A stretch of 64,000 nucleotides of DNA, taken from the IMG/VR virus record IMGVR_UViG_3300033076_001357, positions 21,120-85,119 of that record. The stretch is one strand, 5' to 3'. The stretch comes from a virus (Duplodnaviria > Caudoviricetes). Positions 5,090-43,906 of the stretch are shown here, piece by piece. Under the pieces are notes generated by a model. That model was given only the letters and a program-made list of their open reading frames with translations, searched no databases and was not told the DNA's origin. Within the stretch, counting starts at the first letter, position 1. Each line of letters opens with the position of its first letter. The translations under genes were made by a program, and so were the position numbers.

Positions 5090-5956
5090 CTAGGCGGGGG
5101 TGATCTCCCCGGTGGACTCATCGACCATGGACCCGTCGAACGGGTTCTGGTGGGTGCGCTCGTAGTAGGTCGTGATCAGCGGGTCAGCGACAGCCATGGC
5201 CCGGCTGTCGTCCGCCTGGACGTACTCGATGATGCGGTCCATGGTGGGGTTGGGGAAGACGGCCGGGAGGGCACCGAACCGGTCCTTGCCCCGGGCCTTG
5301 CCGACGGGGCGGGTGACGGCCACGAACCGGGACCGGTCGTCCTGCGGCCCTTCCTTCTGCTCGGTGTAGCACACGACGTCCACGTACCCGACCATGTCCA
5401 CCGCGAACTTGGGAGTGAGGGCCGGTCGGTAGAACGCCCCGTCGGTGTCGATCTCCCGCTTGGCGAGACAGACGAACACCACGTGGCAGTCCAGGTCACG
5501 GAACCGACGCGAGATCAGCCGGACCTGCTCGGTCATCTTGCCCCACTCGTCCTGCTCGGCGCTGAACTCGTCGTCCACCATGCCGACGGCGGTGCGCTTG
5601 ACGTGCCGCTTGTGACGGATGTCCTCCATCAGCTTCTTCTGCAGCTCGGTCATGGAGTCGAAAACGACTCCGGCGACCGACCCGGGGTCGGAATCGATCA
5701 TGTCCTTGACGGACCAGTAGAGACGGTCCAGGTCCTCGTAGGAGGTGACCCGGTAGGGCATGATGTTCTCGACCGGGACGCCCAGCTCGCGAAGGGGCTT
5801 GGCCTTCACACCCGATTCGGCGTCGACGTAGATGATCTTGCCGAGCTTGGCCAGGTGGGCGGCGGCGGTGGACTTGCCCGACCCGCCTTCACCGTAGTAC
5901 AGGACGTTGACGAACTCTTCACCCTCGATCTCGGCGAGGGACTTCAACGGGGGCAT
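5090..5956 (-). CDS. Sak4-like (AAA_24) phage ATPase/recombinase
   Basis: YYGEGGSGKST Walker A, YVDAESG, VVFDSMTELQ, VVFVCLAK. Confidence 0.8.
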   Translation of the reverse strand: MPPLKSLAEIEGEEFVNVLYYGEGGSGKSTAAAHLAKLGKIIYVDAESGVKAKPLRELGVPVENIMPYRVTSYEDLDRLYWSVKDMIDSDPGSVAGVVFDSMTELQKKLMEDIRHKRHVKRTAVGMVDDEFSAEQDEWGKMTEQVRLISRRFRDLDCHVVFVCLAKREIDTDGAFYRPALTPKFAVDMVGYVDVVCYTEQKEGPQDDRSRFVAVTRPVGKARGKDRFGALPAVFPNPTMDRIIEYVQADDSRAMAVADPLITTYYERTHQNPFDGSMVDESTGEITPA

Positions 5957-6024
5957 GCGGTTCCTTCGGGTTGTGTGCGTGGTGACCTGATGCTGACCGG
6001 CGGGCCGAACGGCTCCCGGTAGCG

Positions 6025-6096
6025 TGCCACCAACAGGACTCGAACCTGTGCCTCGGCTGTTTCAGAGCCGCGCTCTACCAACTGAGCTATGGTGGC
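6025..6096 (-). tRNA. tRNA-Phe (GAA)
   Basis: Full cloverleaf: GCCACCA/TGGTGGC, D-arm GCTC-AGTTGGTA-GAGC, CGGCT-CTGAAAC-AGCCG, T-loop TTCGAGT; CCA not encoded. Confidence 0.92.
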
Positions 6097-6150
6097 GGAT
6101 GGAAAGCGGCAGTTATCGCCGCGCCACTCCGCAAACGATAACTGCCGCAG

Positions 6151-6238
6151 TGTGCCGGACGGGAATCGAACCCGCATCTGTGAGTGTCTCAGCCAGGTCC
6201 TACCTCTGGCTTCACCGTCTTACTTAGACCACCGGCAC
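6151..6238 (-). ncRNA. tRNA-like RNA with an extra hairpin in place of the anticodon loop
   Basis: Acceptor GTGCCGG/CCGGCAC-A, D-like GTCT/AGAC, T-arm GCGGG-TTCGATT-CCCGT; the anticodon arm carries AGCCAG-AGGTAGGAC-CTGGCT. Confidence 0.65.
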
Positions 6239-6287
6239 CGCCCGGCTCCTAGGCGCCGGGCCAGGTCGGGTGTGCCTTCCCGACCAG

Positions 6288-6418
6288 TGAGCGGGGCAGG
6301 AATCGAACCTACCTAGGCGGGCTGCCGCCCTATTTGCCTCCAAGGTGAAGGGGAATCGAACCCCACACCCCACCCAGGGGAACCCGGAATCGAACCGGAT
6401 ACCTTATCCACTCCGCTC
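6288..6418 (-). ncRNA. Structured RNA with three identical GGTTCGATTCC T-loop hairpins closed by GAGCGG/CCGCTC
   Basis: Hand folding of the reverse complement. Confidence 0.6.
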
Positions 6419-6441
6419 TCGCTGTTGAGTTGTTGTGCTAG

Positions 6442-6517
6442 TGGACCCGGCGGGATTCGAACCCGCTACGCGCGCTATCACCAGCCGCCGGGTGCACATC
6501 CGGCAGACGACGGGCCC
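6442..6517 (-). ncRNA. 76-nt tRNA-like RNA with non-canonical D and anticodon arms
   Basis: Acceptor GGGCCCG/CGGGTCC-A and T-arm GCGGG-TTCGAAT-CCCGC are intact; the middle does not fit a cloverleaf. Confidence 0.55.
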
Positions 6518-6524
6518 AGGAACG

Positions 6525-6689
6525 TTAGTTGGTCTTGACGGGCTTCTTGCACTTACCCCGACCACAGGGGGCCGGGTCGTGGCGCTGGCCGCACGGCCGG
6601 ACCTTCCACGCCTTGCCGCTACGGCGCTCGGTGTTGGTGGCGACGGCGACGGCCTTCTTCCCGCCCCCGCCGGAGTTCTTCTTTGCCAC
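6525..6689 (-). CDS. 54-aa Lys/Arg-rich peptide with a C-terminal Cys/His cluster
   Basis: RBS AGAAAGGAG, GTG at 6689, TAA at 6525-6527; MAKKNSGGGGKKAVAVATNTERRSGKAWKVRPCGQRHDPAPCGRGKCKKPVKTN. Below the ORF-track cutoff. Confidence 0.65.
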   Translation of the reverse strand: MAKKNSGGGGKKAVAVATNTERRSGKAWKVRPCGQRHDPAPCGRGKCKKPVKTN

Positions 6690-6727
6690 GTGACGCTCCT
6701 TTCTGACGACTGACTGACACCACGGGG

Positions 6728-6851
6728 GGGACGGAGCGGGATTCGAACCCGCATCTGTTGCCAGGGACCGGGACAGCCCACCCGAGGAGATCCGCTCCCT
6801 TTGTGGGGCCCCTGACGTGCGCTTCCGCTCTACCGTTTGAGCTATCCGTCC
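6728..6851 (-). ncRNA. 124-nt tRNA-like RNA with canonical acceptor, D and T arms and a long nested hairpin replacing the anticodon arm
   Basis: GGACGGA/TCCGTCC; TA-GCTC-AAACGGTA-GAGC; GCGGG-TTCGAAT-CCCGC; insert closed by GTCAGGG/CCCTGGC. Confidence 0.7.
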
Positions 6852-6910
6852 AACCGGGACGCGACTTCCGCCGCGTCCCTAGCACCGGGGGGGGCTCGGT
6901 GCATACACCT

Positions 6911-6940
6911 ATTGTAGCATAGGACTTGTCTACGGCACAA
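6911..6940 (-). promoter_or_regulatory. Sigma70/HrdB-like promoter for the tRNA-like cluster
   Basis: TTGTGC-N18-TACAAT with an extended TG. Confidence 0.65.
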
Positions 6941-7247
6941 CCCCCTCTTTGACACGCTGATAACAGCGGTCGCACACCCCCCCTAGGGGGCACCTGTCGC
7001 AGGCGGACAGCCAGCCGTACGTCTGGAGTACGTCCAACGGTGTCCGGGTGTCCTCGGACGCGGTGTCCGGGTGTCCGACGGTGTCCTCGGACGCGGTGTC
7101 CGGGTGTCCGACGGTGTCCGAGACACGTCCGAGGTCGTACAGGGGAGCCACCACCCGGTCCCACAGATCGTCGATGACACGGTCGGGAACCAGCGATCTG
7201 AGAGTTGACCGCAGGTAGGCCCGGGCGTCCTTCCGGGACATCGTCAC
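6930..7247 (-). CDS. Hypothetical protein with DTVGHPDTASE repeats and C-terminal CxxC motifs
   Basis: ORF track; 33-bp tandem DNA repeat inside. Confidence 0.55.
   Translation of the reverse strand: MTMSRKDARAYLRSTLRSLVPDRVIDDLWDRVVAPLYDLGRVSDTVGHPDTASEDTVGHPDTASEDTRTPLDVLQTYGWLSACDRCPLGGVCDRCYQRVKEGVVP
7039..7130. repeat. 33-bp tandem repeat containing eight GGTGTCC (GGACACC) motifs
   Basis: gtgtcctcggacgcggtgtccgggtgtccgacg occurs twice plus partial copies. Confidence 0.85.
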
Positions 7248-7310
7248 AGCTTCCTCCTTGGTAGATACGGGCGAGCCCTGGCCGGGCGGGCCAGGGCTCG
7301 CGGGTTGGTC

Positions 7311-8297
7311 TCAGTGCCGGGAGAAGTCCTGTTGGAAGCCGGTGTCCAACAGGAACCGGCGCTCTCGTTCCTCGCCGACTTTTCGTCCGGTAAGGCAGGC
7401 TTCGGTGAACGCGCACATCCACCGGCACCGATCGGTGTCCGGATGACGCTGATGATGGTTCGACCTGGAGTACATGGCGCGCGCGGTGGCCAGAGCCTCC
7501 TGAGCGACCGTGTCCAGTTCGCGGTCGGTGCGGTTCAGGTAGGTGCGGGCGAACCTGGCTTCAAGTTCCTGGGGCTTGGGCTGGACGCCGGGTTTGCCGC
7601 CTGCCGACTTGACCTGGTGCCACTCGGCCACCACCTCGGGATAGTCTCCCTTGTTGCGGGTGGTCCTAACCGCGTTGTGGATAGCGGCGAATACCGGGCC
7701 GCCCAGCTGCCGCATAGCCCACAGGTACAGAGCGAACTGATCGTCCAGGTCCAGCTCACGGTCCTTGGGTAGGTTGGCGCAGGTCTTGTGGTCGATGAGC
7801 ATCAGGCGATGGTTGGACCGGTTGCGGACGATCAGGTCAATGCCGCCCTTCAGAACGAACCCGGACAGGCGGCCGGTGGCCGTGCGCAGCGGTACCTGGA
7901 ACCTTCGTTCGACATCCACCACTTCCCAGGCAGGGTCGCCCTGCCAGTGGTCGTGGTACCCGGTCAGCATCCACTCGATCAGGCCGAGTATGTCCGGGTC
8001 GATTCCCAGCTGCCGGTAGTCCCGGATCTCGCGCCTGGCGTCCTCAAGGGCCACAGCGCCGCTGGCACCCTGCATGATAGACCGGTAGTAGACTTCGATG
8101 GTCTTGTGAAACAGGGTGCCCTTGCCCAGGGCCGAGTTGTGAGGGGTGGGCTTGACCCACCGCTCCTTATAGGTCAGCAGGTGAGCGTGTGGGCACTGGC
8201 GGAACTTACTGATCTCCGACCAGCTGATGACGATGGGGGGCACTAGCTTCCCAACGTAGGAGGGTGAGAGGTCAGCCAGGGGCCGCCTCTCTTTCAC
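7311..8297 (-). CDS. PD-(D/E)XK Cas4/RecB-like exonuclease
   Basis: SEISKFRQCP...GTLFH...VERRF...GGIDL...IDHKT...QFALY...CRWMCAFTEAC (putative Fe-S cysteines). Confidence 0.8.
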   Translation of the reverse strand: MKERRPLADLSPSYVGKLVPPIVISWSEISKFRQCPHAHLLTYKERWVKPTPHNSALGKGTLFHKTIEVYYRSIMQGASGAVALEDARREIRDYRQLGIDPDILGLIEWMLTGYHDHWQGDPAWEVVDVERRFQVPLRTATGRLSGFVLKGGIDLIVRNRSNHRLMLIDHKTCANLPKDRELDLDDQFALYLWAMRQLGGPVFAAIHNAVRTTRNKGDYPEVVAEWHQVKSAGGKPGVQPKPQELEARFARTYLNRTDRELDTVAQEALATARAMYSRSNHHQRHPDTDRCRWMCAFTEACLTGRKVGEERERRFLLDTGFQQDFSRH

Positions 8298-43822: not shown

Positions 43823-43906
43823 TGGTGCCGCCGGGGGGATTCGAACCCCCACGCCTAAGCACTAGTTCCTAAGACTAGCGTGTCTGCCAAGTTCCACCAC
43901 GGCGGC
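43823..43906 (-). tRNA. tRNA-Leu (TAG)
   Basis: GCCGCCG/CGGCGGC-A-CCA; CTAGT-CTTAGGA-ACTAG; long variable arm. Confidence 0.93.

Follow-up and report, generated by a model that had tools for sequence, protein, structure and literature searches.

An element of 124 nt, located on the minus strand of an uncultured actinophage genome, combines a complete tRNA frame with an arm of 69 nt that replaces the anticodon arm. It occupies positions 6851..6728 (read directly from the sequence) of the window, the whole 64,000-nt stretch of DNA that was analyzed, which belongs to an 85-kb IMG/VR virus record that is about 92% complete. As judged from its sequence, the element has no anticodon and cannot read codons. 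It can be regarded, with moderate confidence, as a functional non-decoding tRNA mimic acting through its tRNA body, the first gene of a small putative operon that is made up of tRNAs and tRNA look-alikes and lies among the replication genes of this phage, which is distantly related to the Hiyaaviruses. In annotation, such a gene is either missed (by ARAGORN) or labelled as a plain tRNA (by Rfam).

The tRNA frame and its arm

The Rfam tRNA model RF00005 scores the element at 44.5 bits, against a gathering cut-off of 29 bits (E = 3.3e-6 for the 64-kb window; Rfam matches were listed at E <= 10 over 5900-7000). The initial annotation had proposed a tRNA body at 6728-6851, and these limits are exact, on the minus strand. 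In the RF00005 alignment, the 71 model positions are placed except for the anticodon arm, where 69 nt replace 17. ARAGORN, a program that needs an anticodon arm, makes no call on the element.

The perfect acceptor stem and the canonical D and T arms that had been described were found as such by direct reading. The 5′ strand of the acceptor stem, GGACGGA (6845..6851, minus strand), pairs at 7/7 positions with 6729-6735, and U8 is present. The D arm, GCTC-AAACGGTA-GAGC (6827..6842, minus strand), carries A14, A15, and G18G19, and its stem is invariant in six members of the lineage. The T arm, GCGGG-TTCGAAT-CCCGC (6736..6752, minus strand), appears both in the RF00005 alignment and on direct reading, next to a 3′ linker, AAC, and a variable region, AGAT (together 6753..6759, minus strand), where U48 can form the Levitt pair with A15. 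The acceptor 3′ strand TCCGTCC and a discriminator C (6728..6735, minus strand) are followed by a run of C, and CCA is not encoded. This discriminator, C73 without G-1, matches no known bacterial identity set. Overall, 16/16 stem pairs of the frame are intact, as are the tertiary nucleotides, with the elbow set of U8, A14, G18G19, T54-C56, and the 15-48 pair all found. The frame is far beyond chance, whereas the folding of the arm is not.

The 69 nt found at the 17-nt anticodon-arm position represent an excess of about 52 nt. G26 and a 9-nt 5′ linker, GAAGCGCAC (6817..6826, minus strand), are unpaired in the minimum free energy (MFE) fold and in all suboptimal folds within 2 kcal/mol. Then comes, in the MFE and suboptimal folds, a 57-nt irregular hairpin (6760..6816, minus strand) replacing the anticodon stem-loop. 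Its MFE structure consists of a 10-bp outer stem, which is present in all suboptimal folds, a 4-bp stem, an 8-nt 3′ bulge, a 5-bp tip, and a 5-nt CGGAU loop, with nine unpaired nucleotides before the hairpin and seven after it. The three helices of the nested hairpin named in the initial annotation can all form, and the MFE fold is a close variant of the pairing described there. The further description of this segment as structured is not demonstrable: the arm alone (69 nt) folds at -29.3 kcal/mol, versus -27.7 +/- 3.4 kcal/mol for dinucleotide shuffles (z = -0.48), 65 of 200 shuffles fold as well, and the arm has no homologue in which covariation could be followed. For the whole 124-nt element, the z-score is -1.68.

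No second copy of the arm was found in the phage genome, in the rest of the window, or in about 500 compared loci, and a blastn-short search of these loci and the rest of the window with the 74-nt middle returned just chance matches of 10-17 nt. Pattern searches were equally unproductive. The exact pattern of D arm and linker had no match in viral contigs; the acceptor and D-arm pattern recovered only ordinary 72-79-nt tRNAs (Val, Phe, Lys, Asn) from viral and metagenome contigs; and the D-arm pattern with an AAAYGG loop gave no GC-rich orthologue in viral and genome contigs. Against GenBank phages, blastn of the region 5900-7000 matched tRNA-Phe only. No significant complement of the arm exists elsewhere in the window, the best matches being 12-16 nt long with E values of at least 0.2. 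The unpaired 5′ linker is also untidy in comparison with the arms of relatives, which join the D stem directly. As the arm is neither thermodynamically special nor matched by a homologue, the window copy could descend from a better-built ancestor and have been damaged since.

To look for a normal anticodon arm within these 69 nt, a deletion test was run, in which any one contiguous block is removed and the remainder must supply position 26, a stem of 5 bp, a loop of 7 nt that has U33 and a purine at 37, and 4 or 5 nt of variable loop. Applied exhaustively to the element, it gave no solution at any cut position for either variable-loop length, and no 5-bp stem with a 7-nt loop containing U33 and R37 is present anywhere within the arm. 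The comparison set comprised 59 distinct phage genes with the D/T-arm pattern, 62-92 nt between the two arms, and good acceptor stems. The test is informative, since it was passed by 22 of these 59 long tRNA-like genes of other phages, against 1.1 with shuffled middles. Short interruptions of phage tRNA genes exist, and the 124-nt element is not one of them. As no deletion restores an anticodon arm and no U33/R37 hairpin is hidden in the sequence, the arm is replaced, not interrupted, and the element is not a decoder. The insert of about 50 nt in the anticodon arm that had been proposed is right as to the excess length, but it is not an insert in an intact arm.

It is, therefore, highly improbable that the element is an intron-containing pre-tRNA, from which splicing would produce a canonical tRNA of about 75 nt. 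Such a reading draws on the tRNA genes of other phages (22/59) that have blocks of 42-55 nt, whose removal yields perfect tRNAs, but in the element itself the deletion test fails at every cut. Introns with a group I or II core usually measure 200 nt or more, against an excess of about 52 nt here, and no intron family matches at E <= 10, in agreement with the initial judgment that the segment is too short for them. A protein-spliced intron was likewise rejected: the folds contain no bulge-helix-bulge, as had been stated from the outset, but a single 8-nt bulge on one side only, and the phage has neither RtcB nor an RNA ligase. Genes for a CCA-adding enzyme, PTH2, and Ro/TROVE proteins are also absent from the phage. 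In addition, bacterial hosts are not known to possess a tRNA splicing endonuclease.

Other RNA families were considered and discarded. A class II tRNA with a giant variable arm does not fit, as the 17 nt after G26 cannot pair. A tmRNA would have tRNA-Ala-like ends with G3:U70, an internal tag reading frame, and no D stem; in the element, the third pair is A3-U70, the D arm is complete, and ARAGORN finds no tmRNA, while the weak Rfam tmRNA match of the region belongs to another RNA (6439-6517). YrlA/Y RNA gives no RF02553 match over the element, in a phage devoid of a TROVE gene, and the defining features of mascRNA are not those of the element. The overlapping open reading frames (ORFs) at 6619-7428, 6404-6781, and 6758-6922 have no family support.

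The interrupted tRNA genes deserve a separate description. They occur in many unrelated, mostly AT-rich phages, are 112-139 nt long, and become perfect tRNAs for Lys, Asn, Thr, Val, Arg, and other amino acids after the removal of 42-55 nt. Usually, the first 2-3 bases of the 5′ strand of the anticodon stem precede the removed block. Examples are found in L012 (119-237), L053 (957-1077, minus strand), L064 (905-1026), L076 (14658-14774), L081 (1104-1231, minus strand), and L058 (4101-4223), as well as in L046, L054, L069, L118, and others. Fifteen of them have in common an ACAGCAA motif after a hairpin, and a second type is marked by a GCCC-tetraloop-GGGC hairpin and GGTTATCG. Over these genes, Rfam reports only 'tRNA'. 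The blocks of 42-55 nt may constitute an undescribed kind of short tRNA intervening sequence.

Operon context and relatives

The genes flanking the element on the minus strand encode a Cas4-family PD-(D/E)XK exonuclease (7311-8297), a Sak4-like annealing protein (5090-5956), a DUF669 protein, and a Prim-Pol. The order of the operon is promoter, leader hairpin, element, 54-aa ORF, odd tRNA-like pieces (6260-6520), 89-nt RNA, tRNA-Phe, and Sak4. An extended -10 box, TGCTACAAT (6911..6919, minus strand), lies 60 nt upstream of the element. Its pattern, TGNTAYAAT, was found twice in the 64 kb, versus 0.37 expected, both times on the minus strand and ahead of blocks of minus-strand genes. A -35-like hexamer, TTGTGC (6935..6940, minus strand), situated 18 nt upstream of the -10 box, is weak (3/6 match). 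A strict scan for sigma-70 promoters and terminators found nothing, and the promoter was called from the extended -10 motif instead. Between promoter and element, direct reading reveals a leader hairpin, GGGACGCG-GCGGAAGT-CGCGTCCC (6856..6879, minus strand).

Upstream of this promoter, the gap that separates it from the exonuclease gene contains a 33-bp unit repeated 2.5 times (96% match; 7039-7120) and built from GGTGTCCG octamers, which may be a protein-binding array.

The ORF that begins 39 nt past the element (6525..6689, minus strand; ribosome binding site (RBS) AAAGGAG) encodes a 54-aa basic Cys/His protein and is probably co-transcribed with the element. It has no match among Pfam or PHROG families. 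Homologues from a family of 54-72 aa are nevertheless present in the tRNA-like arrays of two related contigs, L516 (12156-12362) and L517 (11696-11914), and the three phages share the invariant motif GKAWK-R-CG-RH...C. None was found in the related contigs L125, L126, and L127; a 59-aa ORF after the L125 array is unrelated. In L516, a 67-nt mini tRNA-like RNA, with a 4-bp/tetraloop arm and a window-like frame, lies 21 nt upstream of the homologous ORF. In L517, the homologous ORF stands directly behind the promoter and leader, with no tRNA-like element in between. The pairing of the small ORF with a preceding tRNA-like element is, thus, frequent and not obligatory.

Several further RNAs of the operon depart from normal tRNAs. 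At 6439-6517 (minus strand), a tRNA-like RNA of 76-79 nt has G3:U70 in its acceptor GGGCCCG/CGGGTCC and a poor D stem, with 3/4 pairs and a 7-nt loop; the Rfam tmRNA model gives it 30.3 bits, below the cut-off of 47. Acceptor ends of the same type (GGGCCTG...CAGGTCC) are found in L515 (4371-4450) and L514 (10691-10799). Three GGTTCGATTCC T-loop hairpins follow one another within about 130 nt at 6288-6420 (minus strand). The 89-nt RNA (6150-6238, minus strand) is called tRNA-Leu(TAG) by ARAGORN, while it is under the threshold of the Rfam tRNA model and matches only tRNA-Sec, at 18.9 bits. It is probably another tRNA look-alike, since a normal tRNA-Leu(TAG) exists elsewhere in the window (43823-43906). 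The initial annotation had suggested a common origin of this RNA and the element, based on a common 16-mer, ACAGATGCGGGTTCGA. This is indeed their longest common substring, but it is poor evidence of common origin, because the T-stem/T-loop consensus accounts for 10 of the 16 bases, and TAGATGGAGGTTCGA is found at the same spot in relatives.

Relatives were reached through exonuclease homologues of 56-74% identity. Judged by this protein, the closest ones are the contigs L125, L126, and L127 (71-74% identity), and then L514-L517 (50-57%). Searches for related loci based on the exonuclease alone or on Sak4 alone returned no IMG/VR relatives. Each of these seven contigs has a gene-free stretch of 1-2.5 kb between the exonuclease block and the Sak4/Prim-Pol genes, packed with tRNAs and tRNA look-alikes. 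Genes with a full frame and an oversized, closed arm are among them: 92-nt genes with a 37-nt arm in L125 (7982-8073) and L127 (4300-4391), and a 100-nt gene in L126 (6365-6464), whose arm is a perfect 19-20-bp duplex closed by an AUCG tetraloop. Full-frame genes with an oversized arm are also found in L516 (11588-11677; 90 nt) and L517 (11303-11390; 88 nt). The long-armed gene of L125, L127, and L126 comes first in the array and lies 84-97 nt downstream of an extended -10 box; in the window, too, the element is the first gene behind such a box. L125 and L127 have a promoter and leader similar to those of the window, L125 having a box comparable to its -35/-10 arrangement (TTGCGG-N18-TATACT), and comparable leader hairpins are present in L125, L127, L516, and L517.

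The frame of the element is 78% identical to that of its L125 and L126 counterparts, versus 61% to the tRNA-Phe of the window, which has the same type of D arm. The arms of the counterparts in L125, L126, and L127 differ from that of the window, with a length of 37 or 44 nt, and a more distant positional counterpart has an arm of only 12 nt, so that arms range from 12 to 69 nt. As the relatives keep the position and the frame but vary the arm (37, 44, 12 nt), the arm appears to be freely replaceable in evolution. Its folding is also uneven across the lineage, with z-scores of -9.0 in L126, -2.0 and -2.5 in L125 and L127, and about 0 in L516, L517, and the window. The duplex arm of L126 6365-6464 would be an ideal substrate for a double-strand-specific nuclease or a dsRNA-binding protein.

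The homologue covariation asked of the element could be followed for the frame, but not for the arm, which has no homologue to compare. In an alignment of the frames of six lineage members, 102/102 frame cells form standard pairs. Nine of the 17 frame pairs change on both sides, a figure reached by 0/500 shuffles, and the signal collapses in slid controls. Of the six members, three have A-U at the tertiary 15-48 pair and three have G-C. The sister pair L516/L517 displays six compensatory changes, one of them within the arm, which points to selection on the whole design in these two phages. At the sequence level, the covariation of the frame indicates intact tRNA bodies and is not proof of orthology or function, as any set of real tRNAs would covary likewise.

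Another tRNA-like gene, of 119-125 nt, is conserved in L125 (8314-8432), L127 (4672-4790), and L126 (7345-7469). It has a class-II-style D arm, GCAG-AGCGGCCAA-TTGC, and a middle of 68-72 nt, in which a GGGAG/CTCCC hairpin becomes GGGTG/CACCC in L127.

Among cultured phages, the Streptomyces Hiyaaviruses come nearest; their exonuclease is about 50% identical, and the gene order is shared. The long element is absent from the cultured members Hiyaa and Galactica, which have a normal tRNA-Glu at the syntenic site. Cultured Hiyaaviruses also carry a 78-nt tRNA-like sequence, in which the anticodon loop is replaced by a loop of 12 nt (L006 7504-7581; L005 7589-7666). In Galactica, it scores 31 bits and overlaps the RecA/Sak4-like gene at its annotated start; in Hiyaa, it lies just upstream of the annotated Sak4-like gene.

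Known systems and competing explanations

Compared to a canonical elongator tRNA, the element has the same 7-bp acceptor stem, G18G19, TTCGAAT loop, U8, A14, and 15-48 pair, but it has neither an anticodon stem-loop nor a U33 loop, contains 69 nt in place of 17, and is rejected by ARAGORN. Its nearest documented precedents are the small stable RNAs of the T4 tRNA cluster, rnaC (species 1, 139 nt) and rnaD (species 2, 119 nt), which, like the element, are encoded among clustered phage tRNA genes and exceed tRNAs in length, and which are annotated in GenBank only as 'small, stable RNA'. The element fits this type by context and architecture, the class being descriptive and not a homology family. 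In T4 rnaC, a T arm and a terminal stem are present, but a D arm is missing and RF00005 gives no match (the only score being 17.5 bits to tRNA-Sec), which makes the element, with its full frame, the more faithful tRNA mimic.

YrlA (RF02553) is also non-decoding, with a tRNA-like D/T elbow on a long helix. It is, however, permuted, the T arm preceding the D arm and the termini lying in the long helix, and it works with a Ro/TROVE protein, whereas the element has the normal arm order and its termini in the acceptor stem. Another example of a tRNA-shaped RNA is tRNA-Other of Bacillus cereus, which is reported to play no part in translation and to exert a regulatory effect in the cell (PMC3399842). 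In contrast to the element, tRNA-Other is a chromosomal and not a phage gene, has a normal tRNA length and an anticodon-type loop, and has no expanded arm. A survey of structured RNAs in phages names 'tRNA or tRNA-like structures', without describing a design like that of the element (PMC10690425). In a literature search of incomplete coverage, no description was found of anticodon-less, long-armed phage tRNA mimics.

Besides the intron reading, three explanations compete with a functional mimic. The fold could serve in cis as a processing signal ('tRNA punctuation'), directing RNase P and 3′ nuclease cuts of the transcript. These cuts would release the mRNA of the 54-aa protein and the tRNAs further downstream, giving them defined ends, and the RNA that is cut out would have no job of its own. 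The position of the element between the promoter and the RBS and ORF, ending 39 nt before the start codon, is what such a signal would occupy; the mini tRNA-like RNA of L516 lies in the same slot, and arm content is seemingly unconstrained from 12 to 69 nt. Nevertheless, RNase P needs just an acceptor/T minihelix and an elbow, which the perfect D stem, G18G19, and the covarying 15-48 pair exceed. Moreover, the ORF of L517 does without a tRNA-like element behind its promoter and leader, and the counterpart in L125 and L127 precedes more tRNA-like RNAs, not an ORF of the 54-aa type, so we hold a purely cis-acting role to be unlikely. It is similarly improbable that the element is a relic, i.e., a former tRNA or tidy mimic in which an insertion or a recombination event scrambled the anticodon arm, leaving a neutral remnant. 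An arm that folds no better than shuffles, an untidy 9-nt linker, the lack of an arm homologue in everything searched, and the other odd tRNA-like pieces nearby (6260-6520) would all suit a decaying gene. Decay would not, however, spare 16/16 stem pairs and the tertiary nucleotides while rewriting 69 nt, the slot is one that relatives fill with clearly non-random long-armed genes, and phage genomes lose dead sequence quickly.

A natural 'tRNA scaffold' can also be envisaged, in which the frame would provide processing and nuclease resistance, and the arm would be the active part, either as an antisense RNA or as an aptamer that binds a protein, such as the basic Cys/His protein encoded next to it. 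The variation of arms on a constant frame among related phages, as expected of exchangeable payloads, speaks for this view, along with the perfect 20-bp duplex arm of L126 and the conserved small basic Cys/His ORF that accompanies the arrays of three phages. It is, nonetheless, rather improbable for the window copy, the arm of which has no significant complement in the window (best matches of 12-16 nt, as above) and no sign of selection on its folding (z = -0.48), while L125, L126, and L127 have long-armed elements but lack the small ORF. The functional non-decoding mimic remains the favored explanation, and it is supported by the recurrence of a promoter-proximal slot together with a full frame in L125, L127, and L126.

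Proposed action and significance

In the proposed mechanism of the mimic, transcription would start from the extended -10 promoter at 6940-6911. The host RNase P would then cut off a leader of about 53 nt, in line with known substrate rules; this step is proposed on account of the 7-bp acceptor stem, the T arm, and the intact D/T elbow. The 3′ end would be trimmed past the discriminator, and CCA, which is missing from the gene, would be added by the host enzyme, given that the phage lacks one of its own. After maturation, the RNA would measure about 125 nt and fold into the L-shape of a tRNA, its anticodon limb being a long, closed, irregular hairpin with single-stranded hinges. It would presumably act via the upper body, namely the acceptor end, the T arm, and the elbow, while the oversized arm would exclude it from decoding. 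The likeliest role would be to occupy, as a stable decoy or competitor, a host factor recognizing the upper body of tRNAs, candidate targets being a toxin or defence protein that modifies tRNA ends or cleaves tRNAs, or a processing or modification enzyme. Within the mimic reading, a decoy or competitor is the leading guess, and the genome does not name its target.

The usual explanations for tRNA genes in phages are codon supply and the replacement of tRNAs cut by host defences. A phage tRNA without an anticodon can serve neither purpose, which points to a second use of the tRNA shape in infection. In the lineage described here, such a gene consistently heads the array of tRNAs and look-alikes, and its arm is rebuilt from phage to phage. 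More tentatively, and with some doubt, the element might stand for an undescribed and widespread class of anticodon-less phage mimics, whose tRNA upper body would decoy immunity systems or toxins that hit the acceptor end or the elbow. The sealed arm would be fast-evolving and exchangeable, keeping the RNA off the ribosome, and actinophages would head a 'mimic operon' with one such gene. If the RNA is made and stable, it would offer a handle for finding the host factor that phages occupy through tRNA mimicry.
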